DNA of 64,000 nucleotides, from NCBI GenBank assembly GCA_028715345.1, contig JAQUSB010000002.1, forward strand, positions 675 through 64,674, read 5' to 3'. The position numbers and the translations under genes were made by a program. The notes under the pieces were generated by a model. That model made no database searches, was not told the origin of the DNA, and saw only the letters and a list, made by a program, of their open reading frames with translations. Source of the stretch: Candidatus Omnitrophota bacterium. GTDB taxonomy: Bacteria; Omnitrophota; Gorgyraeia; 2-01-FULL-45-10. Positions 25-60,143 of the stretch are shown here, in pieces; the first letter of the stretch is position 1, and every line of letters begins with the position of its first letter.

Positions 25-1221
25 ATGCCGCCCATGAAACGCTTTGTTACCCTGACTTCCGTGAAGAACGAGTACCTGAAAATAAAACACAGGAAGATAA
101 AGACCGAGAACCTGCTGCTTAAAATAAAGGGGTTACCTCCGGGCAATATCTGGGTAGCTAAATCCGATAAAAGCCTGATGATGATCGATATACCTTCGAC
201 AGGATTAAGGATCACCCGGTCATTCGAATACAAAGAGACCGAGCCCAGGGAGCGCGCCGTTACTTCCGAAAAATACGTATCCAAAGAAATAACTTTCAGC
301 GGTAAGAACCGTCAGCTGTCGGGCACTTTTACATGTCCGGCTCCGGGCGATACGCCTCAGGGCGGACAGGCATACCCGGCAGTGCTGCTCATATGGGGAG
401 CGGGCCCCCAGGACCGCGATTATCAGGGCCTTTTCCGGTCGATCTCGGATCATCTGTCGAATAACGGGTATTGCGTCCTGCGGTTCGACAAAAGAGGCAT
501 AGGCGCAAGTTCCGGCAAGGCGGCGCCGATAACTCCGGAAGACGAATACGCCGATATCGCCGCCGCTCTCGGCTTCCTGAAAACACAGAAGAACGTCAAT
601 CCGGCCAGGATCGCGGTGATAGCCCATTCCGAAGGCGCGGGAGCGGCCATAAAGCTGGCGGCGGATAACGCGGACATACGGAGCGTGATACTCATGGCGC
701 CTCTTGTAAAAACAAGCCCGCGGGATGACGAAGCGCTTCTCCGCGACAGGGCCGCGAAAGAAAAGTGGGGCGATGAATACCTGCGGTCGGTTATAAACGC
801 AATGCGGGAGGCGAGAGATATCGCCGATAAAACAAAGCGCGACTGGGCATACATTATGGGGAAGCGCTGCTACCTGAAGTCGCTGAGAACGGAATTTACG
901 GACTTGAATGACAAGATAAAACTTATTTCGGCGCCCATCCTTATCCTCCACGGAAAAAATGACACGGAAGTGCCGGTCGAGTACGCGGCGCGGTTGGACA
1001 AGGCTTTATCCGAACACGGCAAGATGAAACATTCCGTTACTTACTACAGCTACCTGGGCCACTTTTTCGGCAAATTAATGAACGACGGCGTTCACAAGAA
1101 GTACTACGATGCCGATAAGGATGTTTTGGCCAATATCCGCGACTGGTTGGATATCAATAACGTCGAACCGGTTAAAATAGAGACGGTTAAACAGGTAGAA
1201 CCTGCCTCTGAAACACCTTGA
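25..1221 (+). CDS. alpha/beta-fold hydrolase (dienelactone hydrolase / peptidase S9-like)
   Basis: 398-aa ORF; nucleophile elbow AHSEGAG (GxSxG); typical a/b-hydrolase layout with later acidic/His residues; no in-frame stop upstream of first ATG so N-terminus may lie outside window. Confidence 0.55.
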   Translation: MPPMKRFVTLTSVKNEYLKIKHRKIKTENLLLKIKGLPPGNIWVAKSDKSLMMIDIPSTGLRITRSFEYKETEPRERAVTSEKYVSKEITFSGKNRQLSGTFTCPAPGDTPQGGQAYPAVLLIWGAGPQDRDYQGLFRSISDHLSNNGYCVLRFDKRGIGASSGKAAPITPEDEYADIAAALGFLKTQKNVNPARIAVIAHSEGAGAAIKLAADNADIRSVILMAPLVKTSPRDDEALLRDRAAKEKWGDEYLRSVINAMREARDIADKTKRDWAYIMGKRCYLKSLRTEFTDLNDKIKLISAPILILHGKNDTEVPVEYAARLDKALSEHGKMKHSVTYYSYLGHFFGKLMNDGVHKKYYDADKDVLANIRDWLDINNVEPVKIETVKQVEPASETP

Positions 1222-18568: not shown

Positions 18569-20006
18569 TACGCACGGTTTTCTTAAAATACGGCGAAAAA
18601 CGTCGTCCTACAGGCCGGTTTGCGAAAGGGTCAAGGACTACGATGAGGTCGTGCAGTTGCGTTCCGATGAAAGTTCCGAGGAGCAGGGCGCGCGATGCAT
18701 GGATTGCGGCACACCTTTTTGTCATTGGGGATGCCCTATCGGCAATTACATCCCGGAATGGAACGACCTGATATTCCGCGGGCAGTGGAAACAGGCCATG
18801 GATATCCTGGGCGGGACAAATAACCTTCCCGAGATAACAGGACGCATATGCCCGGCGCTATGCGAATACGCCTGCGTCCTCGGTATAAACGACGATCCTG
18901 TCACCGTCCGTGAGAATGAGCTGGCGATAGTCGAGCATGCCTTTAAGAACGGGTTCATAAAGGCCAGGCCTCCGAGGAAACGGACAGGAAAGAAGGTGGC
19001 TGTGATCGGATCAGGGCCGTCGGGCCTGGCAACAGCGGATCAGTTGAACAAAGCAGGGCATGCGGCAACGGTATTCGAGCGCGATGACAAGATAGGCGGA
19101 ATATTAAGGTATGGCATACCGGATTTTAAACTGGATAAAGGTATTTTGGACAGGCGTATAAAGATATGGAAAAAAGAAGGCATAAAATTCGTTACAAAAG
19201 TAAGTGTCGGCGCAGACCTTAAAGCTTCCAGCCTGAAGAAAGAATTTGACGCTATATGTCTGGCAGGCGGGAGCAGGACGCCGCGCGATATAAAGATAGA
19301 GGGGAGAGAACTTTCAGGCATCCATTTCGCGATGGATTATCTCACCCAGTCGAATAAACGCGCCTCCGGAGAAAAGATACCCGAAGACAGGCTCATCGAC
19401 GCAAAAGGCAAGAAAGTCGTCATCATAGGCGGCGGAGACACCGGGGCCGATTGCGTGGGAACGGCGAACAGACAGGGCGCAAGCTGCGTAGCCCAGATAG
19501 AGGTTATGCCGAAGCCGGCCGAATGCAGGCCGGATAACCAGCCCTGGCCTAAATACCCGCTTATCCTAAAGACCTCGACCAGCCATGAAGAAGGAAGCCA
19601 GCGCCATTGGTCGATCCTTACAAAGAAATTCGCAGGACAGGGTGGACGCATCGCCAAAATATCGTGTGCGCGCGTGGATTTCTCCCAAAAAGACGATAAA
19701 GGATGCCCGGTAATGAAAGAGATCCCGGGAAGCGCATTCGAGATAGAAGCCGACCTCGTGATACTCGCCGTAGGCTTCCTGCATCCCGAACACTCAAGTC
19801 TACTTAAGGATTTAGACGTAGAGCTGGACGTGAGGGGCAACATAAAGACAGGCGCCGATCATGCCACGTCCGTAAAGAACGTGTTCGCCGCAGGAGATAT
19901 GAGAAGAGGCCAATCTCTCGTAGTCTGGGCTATATCCGAAGGCCGGAGCGCCGCGCACTATATAGACAAACACCTGATGGGGGCTACCTCGCTGCCCAGG
20001 ATGTAG
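18561..20006 (+). CDS. gltD: glutamate synthase small (NADPH) subunit
   Basis: 481 aa; CMDCGTPFCHWGCPIGN Fe-S motif; two Rossmann GxGxxG (VAVIGSGPSG; VVIIGGGDTG); overlaps gltB by 8 nt. Confidence 0.9.
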   Translation: MGDTHGFLKIRRKTSSYRPVCERVKDYDEVVQLRSDESSEEQGARCMDCGTPFCHWGCPIGNYIPEWNDLIFRGQWKQAMDILGGTNNLPEITGRICPALCEYACVLGINDDPVTVRENELAIVEHAFKNGFIKARPPRKRTGKKVAVIGSGPSGLATADQLNKAGHAATVFERDDKIGGILRYGIPDFKLDKGILDRRIKIWKKEGIKFVTKVSVGADLKASSLKKEFDAICLAGGSRTPRDIKIEGRELSGIHFAMDYLTQSNKRASGEKIPEDRLIDAKGKKVVIIGGGDTGADCVGTANRQGASCVAQIEVMPKPAECRPDNQPWPKYPLILKTSTSHEEGSQRHWSILTKKFAGQGGRIAKISCARVDFSQKDDKGCPVMKEIPGSAFEIEADLVILAVGFLHPEHSSLLKDLDVELDVRGNIKTGADHATSVKNVFAAGDMRRGQSLVVWAISEGRSAAHYIDKHLMGATSLPRM

Positions 20007-20010
20007 TTGA

Positions 20011-20077
20011 CTGAATTAACTTGGCCGCTCGTAGAACTCGCGGCACTTAGCTAACCCATAGGCTGAATTAACTTGCT
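20011..20077 (+). repeat. REP/MITE-like intergenic repeat, copy A
   Basis: CTGAATTAACTTGGCCGCTCGTAGAACTCGCGGCACTTAGCTAACCCATAGGCTGAATTAACTTG; related to copies at 50801..50856 and 57268..57337 (reverse); internal 13-bp direct repeat CTGAATTAACTTG at both ends. Confidence 0.6.
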
Positions 20078-20110
20078 ATCTCGCCTTACCTATAATAGAA
20101 TAATTACCTT

Positions 20111-22099
20111 ATGACGGATAAGCTTAACATATTCGGAAAAGCCAAGGAATTTGTCATAGGGAAAGCCCGAAACCTGCATGATCCCCGCCTTTTTCACAAT
20201 ATCTCGCTGGTAGCTTTCTTTGCCTGGGTGGGCTTGGGTTCGGACGGCCTTTCATCGTGCTGTTACGGACCCGAAGAAGCCTTTCTTGCACTCCAGTCAC
20301 ATATGTTCCTGGGCATCTTCGTCGCCATAGCGACCGCCATAACCATCTTCGTTATAAGCTCCAGCTATTCACAGATAATCGAGCTGTTCCCGTCAGGCGG
20401 GGGAGGATACCTTGTAGCGAGCAAACTGCTTTCGCCGGCCGTGGGAATGGTCTCAGGCTGCGCTTTGCTCGTAGATTATGTCTTGACTATAGCGATATCC
20501 ATAGCCAGCGGAGCCGACGCGCTCTTCAGTTTTCTGCCTCCGTATCTTTTACAATTCAAGCTGCCTGTCGCTATAACCGGGGTATTTATCCTTACACTGC
20601 TGAATCTGCGCGGCGTAAAAGAATCTATCCTGCCGCTCGTGCCCATATTCCTGACATTCCTGATAACACATTTATTTACGATAGTTTACGCCGTGGCTAC
20701 CAATACATCCCGGTTTGGCGCCATCATAAACACTACGGCCAGCGATGTAACCCTTGCCCGGGCGGAGTTGGGTATATTCGGCATGCTGGTGCTGATAATG
20801 AAAGCATACAGCATGGGTGCAGGAACATATACAGGTATCGAGGCCGTATCAAACGGTATGTCTATATTACGGGAGCCTAAAGTCGAAACGGCAAAGAAGA
20901 CGATGCGCTACATGTCCATTTCGCTTGCCGCTGTCGCCGGCGGCCTTATGCTAGGCTACCTGTTTTACAACGTTAAATTCCAGCCGGGAAAAACGCTCAA
21001 CGCCGTGCTTCTAGAGAACTTAACCTTAAGCTGGAACCCTCAGGTTGGATATATATTCATATTGGTCACCCTTCTGGCAGAAGCCATAATACTTTTTGTC
21101 GCGGCCCAGACAGGGTTTTTGGGCGGCCCGCGCGTTTTGGCCAATATGGCGCAGGACAGGTGGTTCCCGCTGCAATTTTCGCTGCTCAGCGAACGTTTTG
21201 TAACGCAGAACGGTATATTGCTGATGGGCGGAGCGGCACTCGTCCTGATAACCTTGAGCCGCGGATCGGTAAAATTTCTCGTCGTTCTGTACGCCATCAA
21301 CGTTTTTATAACTTTCTGCCTGTCACAGCTGGGGATGGTGCGCCACTGGTGGAACGTCAGAGGCAAGGCATCACGATGGCTTAAGAAACTGGCCATTAAC
21401 GGCCTCGGACTCGTCCTCACAACGTTTATCCTGTTTTCCGTAATAATAATAAAATTCGACGAGGGCGGCTGGATAACGATATTCATTACCGGCTCACTGA
21501 TAGCCCTGGCAGTCGCCATCAAGCGATACTACAGGAGGACGACAAAACTGCTCGTAAGGCTCGACAGCCTCGTCCACGCGGCGGAGATAGCAAGATCGGT
21601 CGAGTCGACGGAAGAGAAGGGGCCTGAGCCGCAGTATGACCCGGAATCGAAAACAGCGGTAATACTGGTGGGCGGTTTCAACGGTATGGGGCTTCACACT
21701 CTATTCAATGTGCGGCGCTTATTCGGCGATATCAAAAATTTTGTTTTCATAAAGGCGGGGATAATCGATTCCGGTAATTTTAAAGGCGTCGATTCCATAA
21801 ACGACCTTAAAAAGCACGTCCAGGACGAGCTTAACCACTATGTAGTTTTTATGAAAAACCAGGGATTTTACGCCGAGGCCTTTTCTACCATAGGAACTGA
21901 AATCGCCGACGATATTTCAGGGATGGCTTACGAGATATTCGAACGCTACCCGAACAGCGTATTCTTCGGGGGGCAGATCGTATTCCCGCAGGACACCATA
22001 TTTACCAAGATGCTGTATAATTACACGACCTTTGCGGTCCAGCGCAGGCTCCATCAGAATGGTATACCGTTCATAGTCATGCCTATCAGGGTAAGTTGA
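20111..22099 (+). CDS. KimA-family (APC superfamily) K+ uptake transporter with C-terminal cytoplasmic domain
   Basis: 662 aa; FPSGGGGYLVASKLLSPAVG and LLVDYVLTIAISIASGADALFSFLP closely mirror the B. subtilis KimA core motifs; ~200-aa soluble C-terminal domain. Confidence 0.55.
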   Translation: MTDKLNIFGKAKEFVIGKARNLHDPRLFHNISLVAFFAWVGLGSDGLSSCCYGPEEAFLALQSHMFLGIFVAIATAITIFVISSSYSQIIELFPSGGGGYLVASKLLSPAVGMVSGCALLVDYVLTIAISIASGADALFSFLPPYLLQFKLPVAITGVFILTLLNLRGVKESILPLVPIFLTFLITHLFTIVYAVATNTSRFGAIINTTASDVTLARAELGIFGMLVLIMKAYSMGAGTYTGIEAVSNGMSILREPKVETAKKTMRYMSISLAAVAGGLMLGYLFYNVKFQPGKTLNAVLLENLTLSWNPQVGYIFILVTLLAEAIILFVAAQTGFLGGPRVLANMAQDRWFPLQFSLLSERFVTQNGILLMGGAALVLITLSRGSVKFLVVLYAINVFITFCLSQLGMVRHWWNVRGKASRWLKKLAINGLGLVLTTFILFSVIIIKFDEGGWITIFITGSLIALAVAIKRYYRRTTKLLVRLDSLVHAAEIARSVESTEEKGPEPQYDPESKTAVILVGGFNGMGLHTLFNVRRLFGDIKNFVFIKAGIIDSGNFKGVDSINDLKKHVQDELNHYVVFMKNQGFYAEAFSTIGTEIADDISGMAYEIFERYPNSVFFGGQIVFPQDTIFTKMLYNYTTFAVQRRLHQNGIPFIVMPIRVS

Positions 22100-49866: not shown

Positions 49867-50799
49867 ATGGATAATCGCGATCATACCGGCAGTGAAAAGC
49901 GCCATACCGCTATGGGCTTGTTTTTAACTCTCCTCGCAATAGTTTTCCTGACAGACATACTTACAAATATCATTACCGCTATATTCCATATTCCCATAAT
50001 ATTAGAATCCGTACTGGGCGGGTTTTTGGTAATTTCGATCGCATACCCGGCCCTCTATCTGCTTATTTTCAAACCCCTATCCGTAGAAATAGCCAGGCGA
50101 AAACGCGTCGAAAAGATGAAGGACGAATTCATCGGCACGGTTTCGCACGAATTAAGAACACCCTTGTCTATCACCAAAGAAGGCCTAAGCCTTGTCCTCG
50201 ACAAGATACCCGGGCCGTTGAACGAACAGCAGGCAAGAATTCTTACAGTATCAAAAAACAATATAAACCGGCTCTCCCGCATAATAAACGACCTGCTCGA
50301 TATTTCGAAGATAGATGCAGGAAAGAAGGTCGTCCGCCATGAAGCCTTCGACATAATACCTGTTATATGGCAGACGATGGCTCTTTTCCAGGCAAGGATC
50401 AGGGATAAAGGCCTGGCATTCAGGAGCGTTCTGCCAAAAGGCGCTATAGTAGTTCGCGGAGACGTTGATGCCATTATTCAGGTATTGACGAATCTTATAG
50501 GGAATGCTCTCAAATTTACCGAGCGCGGGTCCATAGATATATCGCTCAAGGATACCCCGGAAGAGATAGAATTATCGGTCCACGACACGGGGGTAGGCAT
50601 ATCAAAGGAAGACATGCCTAAGTTATTCGAGAAATTCCAGCAGTTCGGGCGCGTCAACGGGCCCGGGGAAAAAGGGACCGGCCTGGGGCTGGCTATAGCC
50701 AAAGGCATAATAACCGCCCACAACGGCAGGATATGGGCGGAAAGCGAATTCGGCAAAGGCACAAAAATTACTTTCGTCCTGCCTAAGAACAAAGAATAG
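49867..50799 (+). CDS. sensor histidine kinase (membrane, HisKA + HATPase_c)
   Basis: two N-terminal TM; H-box FIGTVSHELRTPL; N, G1 (DTGVGI), G2 (GTGLGLAI) boxes. Confidence 0.8.
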   Translation: MDNRDHTGSEKRHTAMGLFLTLLAIVFLTDILTNIITAIFHIPIILESVLGGFLVISIAYPALYLLIFKPLSVEIARRKRVEKMKDEFIGTVSHELRTPLSITKEGLSLVLDKIPGPLNEQQARILTVSKNNINRLSRIINDLLDISKIDAGKKVVRHEAFDIIPVIWQTMALFQARIRDKGLAFRSVLPKGAIVVRGDVDAIIQVLTNLIGNALKFTERGSIDISLKDTPEEIELSVHDTGVGISKEDMPKLFEKFQQFGRVNGPGEKGTGLGLAIAKGIITAHNGRIWAESEFGKGTKITFVLPKNKE

Positions 50800-50800
50800 C

Positions 50801-50856
50801 AAGGCCTCGGTCGGAGACCTCGGCACTTAGCCAACACTATGGCTGAATAAACTTGG
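50801..50856 (+). repeat. REP/MITE-like intergenic repeat, copy B (between kinase and response regulator)
   Basis: AAGGCCTCGGTCGGAGACCTCGGCACTTAGCCAACACTATGGCTGAATAAACTTGG; shares the CGGCACTTAGCnAACnCnATGGCTGAAT(T/A)AACTTG core with 20011..20077. Confidence 0.6.
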
Positions 50857-50866
50857 GAGAATATAC

Positions 50867-51253
50867 ATGGCAAAGCACAAATTGCTTATAGTAGATGATG
50901 AGATAGATTTCCTGGAAATGCTCAAGCTGAGGCTTGAGGCCAATAATTATTCCGTCGTGACAGCGATGGACGGCAATGAGGCCCTGGAAAAATTCAAGAC
51001 CGAAAAACCCGCGGCAGTGCTTTTGGATATACTTATGCCCGGGATGGACGGCATCGATGTGCTAAAAAAGATACGCAAAGAGAACAGTAAAGTTCCGGTC
51101 TTTATAATAACGGCTTTTTCGAATGAGGAACGGTTCAAGATGGCCAATAAACTCAACGCTTCAGGGTTTATAGTAAAGACGAATGACCTGCAGAAGGAGA
51201 TACAGAACATAACTTCAGCCATAGCTATCTCGGAAGGCTTTAAAGGACGTTAA
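50867..51253 (+). CDS. single-domain response regulator (CheY-like receiver)
   Basis: LLIVDDE, phospho-acceptor D in LLDILMPGMDG, T/K residues. Confidence 0.85.
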   Translation: MAKHKLLIVDDEIDFLEMLKLRLEANNYSVVTAMDGNEALEKFKTEKPAAVLLDILMPGMDGIDVLKKIRKENSKVPVFIITAFSNEERFKMANKLNASGFIVKTNDLQKEIQNITSAIAISEGFKGR

Positions 51254-56458: not shown

Positions 56459-57286
56459 ATGAAGATACTGAATAAAAAAGTTTTGGGTGAGGTCCAGGGC
56501 ATAAAGATAACGATGCTGGAGGTTGCGGCACCGGACATTGCCCGCAAAGCTAAAGCCGGGCAATTCGTAGCGCTCATGGTAAAAGAAACGGGCGAGAGGA
56601 TACCTCTCACCATTGTAGATAGGAGCGACAAGAACGGCTCTATAACACTCATATTCCAGGAGGCCGGGCTTACCACGCGCCTCCTGGGAAGCCTCAACAT
56701 CGGCGACTCCCTCTACGCGATCGTCGGCCCGCTCGGCCACGCCACGGAGATAAAAAAATACGGCAGGATAATACTGGTAGGCGGCGGCGTAGGCATAGCC
56801 GAGATATACCCGGTCGCTAAAGCTTTTAAAAAAGCGGGCAACAACGTTACCACAATACTGGGGACGCGGACCAAAGACCTGCTCATACTCGAAAAAGAAT
56901 TAAAAGAAACCTCCGACATCTTACACGTCGTCACCGACGACGGCTCGTACGGTAAAAAAGGTTTCACCACCGACGTATTGACGGATCTCCTGAAAAAAGA
57001 CAGATACGACCTCGTTTACGCGGTCGGCCCGATACCTATGATGAGACGGGTCTCCGACATCACCAAAGGGTTCGGCGTGAAGACCGTAGTGTCGCTGAAC
57101 GCTCTCATGGTCGACGCTACCGGCATGTGCGGGTGCTGCAGGGTCACGGTCGGAGGCGCGGTCAAATTCAGCTGCGTAGACGGCCCCGAATTCGACGCAG
57201 GCGACGTCGACTGGGACGAGCTCGTGAAGAGGAACAGGATATACGAAGACAAAGAAAAACATATATGTAAGTTAATTCAGCCATAG
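56459..57286 (+). CDS. nfnA: NfnA/SudB-type FAD/[2Fe-2S] oxidoreductase small subunit (PyrK-like)
   Basis: 275 aa; ferredoxin-NADP reductase-like fold and C-terminal CGCCRV...C cluster. Confidence 0.65.
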   Translation: MKILNKKVLGEVQGIKITMLEVAAPDIARKAKAGQFVALMVKETGERIPLTIVDRSDKNGSITLIFQEAGLTTRLLGSLNIGDSLYAIVGPLGHATEIKKYGRIILVGGGVGIAEIYPVAKAFKKAGNNVTTILGTRTKDLLILEKELKETSDILHVVTDDGSYGKKGFTTDVLTDLLKKDRYDLVYAVGPIPMMRRVSDITKGFGVKTVVSLNALMVDATGMCGCCRVTVGGAVKFSCVDGPEFDAGDVDWDELVKRNRIYEDKEKHICKLIQP

Positions 57287-57337
57287 TGTTGGCTAAATGC
57301 CGAGATCTCCGATCGAGGCCAAGTTGTTAATTAAACC
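57268..57337 (-). repeat. REP/MITE-like intergenic repeat, copy C (inverted), overlapping last 6 codons of nfnA
   Basis: reverse complement TTTAATTAACAACTTGGCCTCGATCGGAGATCTCGGCATTTAGCCAACACTATGGCTGAATTAACTTAC aligns with copies A/B. Confidence 0.6.
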
Positions 57338-57340
57338 ATC

Positions 57341-60143
<2,803 letters not shown>

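Follow-up and report, generated by a model that had tools for sequence, protein, structure and literature searches.

REP sequences lie mostly 3' of genes, show no orientation preference relative to a downstream Shine-Dalgarno sequence (SD), are linked to RAYT transposases, and are defined by a conserved GTAG-type head and by inverted pairs flanking the RAYT gene. In pneumococcal BOX elements, distinct boxA and boxC ends flank a tandemly repeatable boxB, and IS200/IS605 elements have similar hairpins at their left and right ends. Stabiliser hairpins of 5'UTRs and STAB-SD leaders, represented by the ompA 5' stem-loop and the Bacillus aprE and cryIIIA leaders, place a hairpin a short way ahead of a strong SD and close to where the mRNA begins, a geometry that protects against 5'-end-dependent decay. 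REPs have been described as single imperfect palindromes of 21-65 bp (PMC3184786), often arranged in inverted pairs. Mycobacterial MIRUs are 40-100-bp units found at tens of loci, often as variable-copy tandem arrays (PMC3184786, PMC12548453). They lie between cistrons of operons, are co-transcribed and gene-oriented, and leave both empty and filled sites (PMC3184786). They are proposed to insert at start codons while leaving the geometry of initiation intact (PMC12548453, citing Supply et al. 1997).

Here we describe a 52-nt unit, a small interspersed intergenic repeat newly described in Omnitrophota, whose closest analogue is the MIRU family. The unit shares with MIRUs its size class, its occurrence at tens of loci, its often tandem arrays of variable copy number, its intercistronic position in operons with probable co-transcription, its orientation with the genes and its empty and filled sites. 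Insertion at the translation-initiation region, thought to minimise damage, is likewise common to both, and the founding MIRU locus is a two-component-system operon (PMC3184786), as is the site of one copy described below (copy B). There is no sequence similarity between the two and they belong to different phyla. Moreover, whereas MIRUs insert at the start codon and have a small ORF of their own, in translational coupling with the next gene at a -4 spacing (PMC12548453), the 52-nt unit abuts the SD and has no such internal ORF overlapping the flanking genes, the start codon following the SD 8-15 nt past the unit. A tetranucleotide direct repeat is reported for MIRUs (PMC3184786); none of constant length accompanies the 52-nt unit.

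The preliminary description of this DNA had called the repeats REP-like or MITE-like, and neither label suits them; the role in mRNA stability or differential expression suggested there is a putative one. REP/BIME elements of Enterobacteria and Pseudomonas are also short, abundant, transcribed intergenic repeats with a GC-rich stem-loop, able to sit between operon genes and candidates for an effect on mRNA stability, but a single palindrome, inverted pairs, 3' placement and lack of orientation preference are not found in arrays of the 52-nt unit. Instead, the unit has two different hairpins with conserved single-stranded segments, its arrays run head-to-tail and not inverted, and it shows a strong orientation bias and lies tight against ribosome-binding sites on their 5' side. 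As for MITEs, there are neither terminal inverted repeats nor a constant target-site duplication: the end sequences GGCCUCGG... and ...AAUAAACUU do not form an inverted pair, and the hairpins are internal. Pneumococcal BOX elements (Croucher et al. 2011, PMC3049150) share with the unit the character of modular small interspersed repeats that contain an inner unit able to repeat in tandem, are transcribed and have a predicted stable fold; BOX-type distinct ends are, however, not seen in the 52-nt family, which has a single unit type, a strict 52-nt register and a fixed SD junction. Stabiliser leaders share with the unit this placement of hairpins relative to the mRNA 5' end and a strong SD, but are single-gene leaders, whereas the 52-nt unit is a repeated family with a putative role.

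The window analysed here is the whole 64,000-nt stretch of contig JAQUSB010000002.1 (assembly GCA_028715345.1, positions 675 to 64,674), assigned to a Candidatus Omnitrophota bacterium. Three copies had been claimed in the stretches beginning at 20011, 50801 and 57268, and all three are present there: the core GGCAYTTAGCNAACNCNATGGCTGAATWAACTT matches three times in the window at up to two mismatches, where shuffles expect 0.00, and the copies align with one another across their entire length. The family was first defined from other genomes, and the resulting covariance model (R1) was then run on the window with filters off, which left no fourth copy (next-best score, 12.5 bits). Boundaries were refined to a unit of 52 nt, GGCC...AACTT, and the features of the window are as follows (the two classes are defined by their flanks, see below):

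20011-20022, + strand: partial unit left of copy A, 12 nt, CTGAATTAACTT, equal to the 3' end of the unit
20023-20074, + strand: copy A, full 52-nt unit, class 2 (covariance model 55.8 bits, E 2.6e-15)
20068-20101, + strand: sigma-70-like promoter of the permease gene, by the end of copy A (10/12 and 9/12 matches)
50803-50854, + strand: copy B, full 52-nt unit, class 1 (covariance model 81.6 bits)
50855-50869, + strand: pre-existing Shine-Dalgarno sequence GGGAG and ATG (50867) of the response regulator, abutting the end of copy B
57269-57320, - strand: copy C, full 52-nt unit, class 2 (covariance model 75.2 bits)
57321-57337, - strand: diverged partial unit of about 17 nt, reading AAGTTGTTAATTAAACC on the + strand, between copy C and nfnB

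Pfam backs the labels previously given to the neighbouring genes (GltB/GltD-like, histidine kinase, response regulator, NfnA/NfnB-like) and supports an APC permease downstream of copy A. Copy A, whose second hairpin is partly decayed, lies between the stop codon of the gltD-like gene (20004-20006), with GltB and the GltD-like subunit encoded upstream, and an APC permease gene starting at 20111. Copy B separates a histidine kinase gene, ending in the TAG at 50797-50799, from its response regulator. Copy C is antisense to the nfnA-like and nfnB-like genes; it supplies about the last three nfnA codons (IQP) and the TAG stop at 57284-57286, and nfnB starts at 57341. The element had earlier been credited with the last six codons of nfnA and its stop, which is correct for approximately Ile-Gln-Pro and the stop, while the Lys-Leu is part of the native HICKL, which the listed homologues conserve.

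The three copies belong to a much larger family. An exact-pattern scan of species-representative genomes returned three matches, all in Candidatus Omnitrophota MAGs, and the same scan of metagenomes returned 63 loci. In these 66 public loci the covariance model recovered 112 units besides the window's three, and together they form 79 arrays (51 single, 22 double, 4 triple and 2 quadruple) in which up to four units follow one another head-to-tail at a period of always exactly 52 nt. One 830-kb contig holds eight matches to the strict scan pattern, and a 710-kb contig of a related genome holds none. The possibility that only three copies exist, alike in no more than a short motif, is thereby dismissed, the similarity extending over the whole 52 nt. 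The description of the repeat as a proliferating miniature element is borne out by its many copies in many Omnitrophota genomes, by clean empty sites and by a copy number that varies at one orthologous site. For the NfnA-like protein and the permease of the window, an NCBI 'Candidatus Omnitrophica' MAG encodes proteins with 100% identity on a 94-kb contig; between the window and any fetched locus there is no long DNA similarity, which rules out that the window is the same genome as one of these loci.

No unit occurs in the viral contigs, plasmids and phages searched, which speaks against an origin in such replicons. Rfam 15 gave no gathering-level match anywhere in the window, and around copy B, at E values of up to 10, only chance matches to eukaryotic families at 8-13 bits. 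A known RNA family (riboswitch, leader, sRNA or terminator class) was thus rejected at both thresholds, and with it the suggestion that the copies might track a known terminator or riboswitch class. The literature searched held nothing relevant on an Omnitrophota repeat or SD motif, and neither it nor Rfam 15 lists a repeat family or 5'UTR motif for the phylum. The 52-nt family is undescribed and has so far been found only in Candidatus Omnitrophota.

The consensus of the unit reads GGCCUCGGUC-GGA-GACCUCGGC-AC-UUAGCYA-ACACYR-UGGCUKA-AUAAACUU. Hairpin 1 (GCC-UC-GGUC / GACC-UC-GGC) has a nine-position stem, usually with U.C and C.U mismatches at the two central positions, so that its commonest form contains a 2x2 U.C/C.U internal loop, a minority of units having G-C and A-U pairs there. 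A GGCAC linker leads to hairpin 2, (UU)AGCCA / UGGCU(KA), which is followed by the single-stranded tail AAUAAACUU. The unit contains stop codons (TAG at 26-28, TAA or TGA at 42-48), and its length is no multiple of three.

Folding of the individual copies had been proposed as a check. RNAalifold independently predicts both hairpins, and since single-copy folding energies are only modestly better than those of shuffles (z -0.5 to -2.7), the case for the structure rests on covariation. In hairpin 1, compensatory changes on both sides affect eight of nine pairs; for the whole structure, covariation as high as that observed occurs in none of 500 shuffles, and it collapses in slid controls. The sequence of hairpin 2 hardly varies, in part because the scan pattern fixed it, and copies recovered by the covariance model show 33 changes from C-G to U-G, 7 from A-U to G-U and 2 from A-U to G-C. 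On the complementary strand these wobbles would be A.C mismatches, which points to a structure maintained on the strand shown, as RNA or single-stranded DNA. The loop of hairpin 1 is variable, with GGA in 65, AGA in 13, UAAA in 13 and other sequences in 21 of the 112 units. A CsrA/RsmA pair of sites, with an invariant GGA in the loop and another in the SD, is weakened as a reading by this variability, given that 47 units carry AGA, UAAA, GUA, AUA, UGA or another loop.

The arrays fall into two junction classes, whose proportions carry an ascertainment bias as the element itself was used to find the loci. About two thirds, copy B included, belong to class 1 (AA, unit, GGAGG) and stand in sense orientation, and 21 arrays, copies A and C among them, belong to class 2 (AACTT, unit, G). 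Across 49 non-redundant class 1 arrays, A occupies position -1 in 40 and position -2 in 37, and the right flank reads G (49), G (48), A (39, or G in 10), G (46) and G (33); start codons mostly lie 8-15 nt past the end of the unit, with a peak at 10-12. The left flanks of the 21 class 2 arrays end in CTT (T at -1 in 17, T at -2 in 16, C at -3 in 13) and their right flanks begin with G, then A or C. Class 2 arrays generally begin with (A)ACTT, identical to the 3' end of the unit itself, and sharing between their flanks of up to 13-14 nt is simply this 3' end. The search for target-site duplications that had been recommended found none of constant length at either type of junction, class 1 flanks sharing at most GG and class 2 flanks (A)ACTTG. 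The two classes fit no one simple target-site rule. The canonical tail AAUAAACUU (ATA) is kept in 47/49 class 1 versus 13/23 class 2 arrays; a unit subtype going with junction class was rejected, as the tail alone differs and positions 5-6 and 30 do not.

By crude gene calls, element and downstream gene share a strand in 59 cases and lie on opposite strands in 9, and some arrays (such as copy C and those of L040/L006) run antisense to the genes on either side. The ORF upstream enters the first unit and ends at its TAG (+28) in 13 arrays. As read from their N-terminal sequences, the genes downstream of arrays encode L21, L35 (in the order infC, unit, rpmI), L7/L12, DnaK, GAPDH, SSB, FtsH and MetK, several of them (L21, L35, L7/L12, DnaK, GAPDH, SSB and MetK) of a highly expressed kind. 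The SDs next to units are unusually strong, and those of ordinary window genes are weak. Downstream of the copy at L010, a candidate tRNA was discarded, ARAGORN finding none and the tRNA-like sequence being interrupted after the anticodon loop.

Orthologous sites document gain and loss of units. Two syntenic relatives (L071 and L073, with the same gene order and an NfnA 89% and 77% identical) lack copy B, the gaps between kinase and regulator genes measuring 3 and 12 nt without an element. Their empty sites read 'aaaaagaGGAGAtagcgtATG' (L071) and 'gtttaaaaaGGGGGAGatATG' (L073); in alignment, gtttaaaaa followed by GGGGGAGatATG in L073 corresponds to TAGcaa[52 nt]GGGAGaatatacATG in the window. 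Since the empty sites already carry the SD, the SD pre-existed, copy B entered exactly at its 5' edge, and the idea that the element brings its own SD is ruled out. Copy B is a lineage-specific insertion. The site of copy C starts at the same base after catatatg in the four genomes compared, with two full units in L070/L073, one and a partial unit (1.25) in the window, and only a 12-14-nt remnant (about 0.25 unit) in L067 and L069; this remnant encodes the NfnA tail (K)LIQP.

At the site of copy A, the 13-bp direct repeat CTGAATTAACTTG reported at its two ends is real (20011-20023 and 20063-20075), but no conventional target-site duplication: it equals the unit's 3' end in register, its left copy consisting of the partial unit at 20011-20022 and G20023. 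In the closest relative, L074, a decayed unit (49.4 bits) lies between two copies of a 14-nt repeat of its own, ACAGAATAAACTTG, and both of these carry the same derived mutations, which likewise rejects a target-site duplication. The repeat of copy A is a partial unit kept identical to its neighbour.

The locus with a zinc-ribbon gene followed by a DUF2582 gene, of class 1, has the unit in four loci found by pattern. Four further orthologues, fetched by protein identity alone and hence an unbiased sample, contain no unit across 80.8 kb. Two of these are clean empty sites (aaga then GGGAGG; gaaaAGGAGG), and in the other two the position is taken by other structured inserts. Of 36 pairs of neighbouring units within arrays, 15 consist of identical or almost identical units and 12 differ at five or more positions; the members of these 12 pairs represent different hairpin-1 variants, which are also met in other places. 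New units thus seem to insert beside old ones, and arrays grow by local duplication and, apparently, by new units joining.

Signals for transcription lie mostly outside the unit. A sigma-70 scan finds no promoter inside copy B, and copies A and B have no sense-strand terminator-like site, the only matches being antisense ones that arise from a native A-run seen as a T-run; in copies A, B and C, no U-tract follows hairpin 1. At copy A the permease promoter has its -35 box at the end of the element, as TTAACT (20068-20073) or as TTGCTA (20073-20078), built from the element's terminal TTG, and its -10 box as TATAAT (20091-20096) or TAGAAT (20096-20101), the pairings being TTGCTA-17-TAGAAT or TTAACT-17-TATAAT. 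In eight class 2 arrays (copy A and seven others), the terminal TTG opens a -35 hexamer that is followed, after 16-17 nt, by a good -10 box; only this TTG contributes to the -35 box, and the -10 box is outside the unit. L074 has cTTGATA-17-TATAAT after its unit, and L075, which has no element and a different upstream gene, has a native TTGACC-17-TATAAT-8-ATG, so that the unit of copy A sits on the TTG of a pre-existing -35 box.

In class 1 arrays with room upstream, sigma-70-like promoters mostly end 6-32 nt ahead of the unit. At L037 the order is promoter (near-consensus TTGACT-16-TATAAT, 11/12, with TG ahead of the -10 box), TPP riboswitch (48.1 bits, E 1.8e-8, just below the gathering score), terminator, two units, SD and a thi4-like gene. 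Riboswitch control of this gene requires read-through of the units, which would therefore be transcribed and without a strong promoter of their own. On this layout and the scans of copies A and B, a promoter inside the unit and a sense-strand terminator are rejected. From their genomic context, we infer that the units are transcribed within 5'UTRs and intercistronic spacers.

Taken together, the data probably describe a duplicative, tolerated, MIRU/REP-like miniature repeat, a 52-nt two-hairpin unit that has spread in Omnitrophota, and we hold this reading with some reserve. As the loci show, the unit has spread by duplicative insertion and growth into exact 52-nt head-to-tail arrays. Class 1 sites place it between an A-run and the G-run of a pre-existing SD, in sense to the gene; at class 2 sites it has AACTT on its left and G on its right, a position that often coincides with the TTG of a -35 box. 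Because the unit would fold on itself, leaving its A/U-rich tail and the G of the next GG, SD spacing and accessibility would be kept, and insertions there would survive while others were purged. The predicted accessibility of the SD (six bases past the unit) is 0.48 with the element and 0.52 at a simulated empty site, values that do not differ significantly, and 0.37 with a shuffled element (p = 1.7e-4); the unit is thus predicted not to occlude the SD, yet to bring no gain in accessibility. The strand-specific G-U wobbles and the strict orientation point, speculatively, to copying through a single-stranded intermediate (RNA or ssDNA) that might be anchored on the SD or on a unit junction (GGAGG or AACTTG), both junction types partly resembling the unit-unit junction, AAUAAACUU then GGCC. 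Neither a transposase nor a recombinase or reverse transcriptase was identified in association with it.

Against this stands the view that the unit is a dedicated cis-acting module of 5'UTRs and intercistronic RNA, which spread because a useful module was recruited; it might stabilise the cistron against 5'-end-dependent decay, enhance or insulate initiation at a strong SD, or bind a phylum-specific regulator of the CC-UC-G...C-UC-GG hairpin. We regard this as unlikely, though much of the evidence suits it: the sense orientation in 59 of 68 cases, the exact abutment to unusually strong SDs (those of ordinary window genes being weak), the covariation and the wobbles confined to the top strand, the preferential retention of the canonical tail beside SDs, the genes downstream (L21 to MetK, above), promoters so close upstream that hairpin 1 would lie near the mRNA 5' end, and a second repeat family that has the same internal-loop hairpin and also ends on SDs. 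At the orthologous DUF2582 locus, moreover, units keep 87-92% identity although the four-fold sites there have reached saturation (6/20, 11/20 and 5/19 identical). Yet copy B and the four sampled orthologues of this 'conserved' site show the element to be dispensable and specific to certain lineages, and the 710-kb contig of a related genome is without a strict-pattern match; about one third of arrays are not beside an SD and some are antisense to both neighbours, predicted SD accessibility is not above that of the empty site, and the hairpin-1 loop sequence is not conserved. The conservation and the SD-side retention of tails could reflect selection for an RNA function rather than competence for copying, but these features, like the strong SDs and the downstream genes, would fit either an RNA role or copying competence with insertion at hot spots. 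Other repeat families hold the same SD-edge position, among them inserts in the unbiased DUF2582-locus orthologues, which may point to a hot spot or, just as well, to a functional need. These families also underlie a broader proposal to which we give little credence, namely that Omnitrophota harbour a 'ribosome-site-homing' class of repeats unrelated in sequence (the 52-nt family, a 68-nt family and a third insert), ending on the 5' edge of GGAGG and copied via the SD as anchor without a transposase of their own, or else a phylum-wide post-transcriptional regulon with one hairpin-binding factor. At least the 52-nt and 68-nt families share the CC-UC-G...C-UC-GG hairpin, and the 68-nt family and the third insert likewise end at the 5' edge of GGAGG; one route for such homing would be priming or template switching on an mRNA or nascent strand that bears the element.

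Two further explanations invoke machinery of a more familiar kind. A non-autonomous REP/RAYT- or IS200/IS605-type element (PATE) would depend on a Y1 (HUH) transposase, its gene lying at another place in the genome, for movement as single-stranded DNA; by inserting on the 3' side of a short target similar to its own right end (AACTT), it would explain tandem arrays. The lack of terminal inverted repeats and of a constant target duplication, the subterminal hairpins with structure supported on one strand only, class 2 left flanks equal to the unit's own 3' end and arrays that mix variants all agree with it. It is nonetheless improbable: in place of similar end hairpins and one fixed tetra- or pentanucleotide target, the unit has two hairpins unlike each other and two flank classes, the class 1 left flanks being A-runs and not AACTT; no Y1 transposase gene was noticed among the ORFs beside arrays in L040 and L024, and neither a GTAG-type head nor inverted pairs flanking a RAYT gene were seen. 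That the unit is a cassette for transcription punctuation, hairpin 1 terminating the upstream gene and the rest serving as promoter for the downstream gene, is highly improbable, even though units fill whole intergenic gaps from stop codon to SD, a loose TTAGCC-16-TAAACT can be read in the unit by eye, and the terminal TTG forms the -35 box of a good promoter in the eight class 2 arrays. The sigma-70 scan and the U-tract-less hairpin 1 speak against it, many arrays have separate promoters just upstream, and in class 2 cases the -35 box pre-existed (L075). A promoter with TAAACT would, in addition, start transcription at or beyond the SD and leave the conserved SD untranscribed, and at L037 an internal promoter would bypass the riboswitch while a terminator would silence the gene.

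The reading as a tolerated, multiplying repeat leaves room for function: the unit may have acquired an RNA role, and any benefit, for instance 5' hairpins protecting the mRNA of the downstream cistron, would speculatively be secondary. Its occurrence as dispersed and tandem intercistronic copies, gene-oriented, variable in copy number and with empty sites in relatives, is the pattern of the MIRUs.

Omnitrophota are a widespread, almost uncultured phylum, and the 52-nt unit offers a case from compact genomes of a small repeat multiplying where it does least harm, at the 5' edge of SDs and at -35 boxes, with parallels to the mycobacterial MIRUs. The covariance model can be used in genome annotation, and the arrays are a potential VNTR marker for strain typing in metagenomes; gene callers should be alert to the fact that units give upstream genes stop codons and altered C-termini. 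The family would be considerably more interesting if the SD proved to be a homing anchor or the hairpin to have a dedicated partner, and if an RNA role or such an SD anchor is true, it would bear on the evolution of translation-initiation regions.

Besides the 52-nt unit, a second, distinct tandem repeat family with a period of about 68 nt was seen in the loci fetched from other genomes and metagenome contigs (L-numbers; coordinates are those of each locus), as was a third structured insert at the same zinc-ribbon/DUF2582 Shine-Dalgarno (SD) site:

L079 9820-9978, ~68-nt repeat family
L078 10201-10420, ~68-nt repeat family
L010 about 294-360, minus strand, ~68-nt repeat family
L078 9920-9986, third structured insert of ~67 nt, zinc-ribbon/DUF2582 locus

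The final unit of the ~68-nt family stops exactly at the SD (...caaatc/GGAGG...ATG), as the 52-nt unit does. Like hairpin 1 of the 52-nt unit, the hairpin of this family contains a 2x2 pyrimidine internal loop (CCC-UC-G[stem]...[stem]C-UC-GGG). The third insert ends caaatct/GAGGAGG and recurs as a weak second copy at L078 11374-11410.

The 52-nt units also occur close to structural RNAs and riboswitches, the last three entries below being Rfam gathering-level matches:

L037 6211-6643, TPP riboswitch with promoter and terminator (48.1 bits, just under the Rfam gathering score)
L005 974 to 426, minus strand, bacterial RNase P RNA gene (174.7 bits)
L065 1155-1345, group I intron near a 52-nt element locus
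L014 1074-1296, FMN riboswitch, divergent from an element-bearing gene
L007 2010-2090, ZTP riboswitch near a 52-nt element locus

In L037, the TPP riboswitch controls a thi4-like gene, and two units lie between the riboswitch terminator and the SD of that gene. The RNase P RNA gene is flanked by oppositely oriented arrays (L005 249-1089), one of them antisense and just 11 nt upstream of the RNA 5' end. A tRNA-like sequence (GCTGGCGTAGCTCAGTTGGTAGAGCAGCGGTTTCGTAA...; L010 1-224, minus strand) has a further unit directly against its 5' end and is broken off immediately 3' of the anticodon loop; ARAGORN called no tRNA in this sequence, which may represent an intron-containing tRNA extending past the contig end.

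Other arrays have cassette- or island-like surroundings. On contig Ga0265297_10003513 (L040 1-3150 and L006 11300-12680), a conserved frame larger than the arrays surrounds them, with GTACCGTTTGCGATTTTAACTT before the units and GCAACCTGTCCCCTATTTCAAGATTAAAGGTGTCCCC after them; the arrays are antisense and sit between small minus-strand cassettes encoding a nucleotidyltransferase/HEPN-like pair and an AAA ATPase. The layout is integron-like, with no integrase visible. In L024 3049-5510, which looks like an accessory island, two paralogous DUF1016/PDDEXK-like genes are preceded by two units, and an identical promoter, cTTGACA-16-TATATT, comes after each unit.

Beside copy A, the permease gene has a TATAAT box just 14 nt upstream of its ATG (window 20091-20113) and lacks an SD, an arrangement also present in relatives (L074 and L075), which suggests a leaderless or near-leaderless mRNA.

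At 13 loci (L001, L002, L011, L014, L015, L022, L029, L041, L045, L047, L051, L053 and L060), the upstream ORF enters the first 52-nt unit and stops at the unit TAG (+26..+28). The native overlapping stop/start, present in the empty site of L080, is lost where the ORF reads into the unit, and the protein acquires a new, element-encoded tail, e.g. ...ASVGDLGT.
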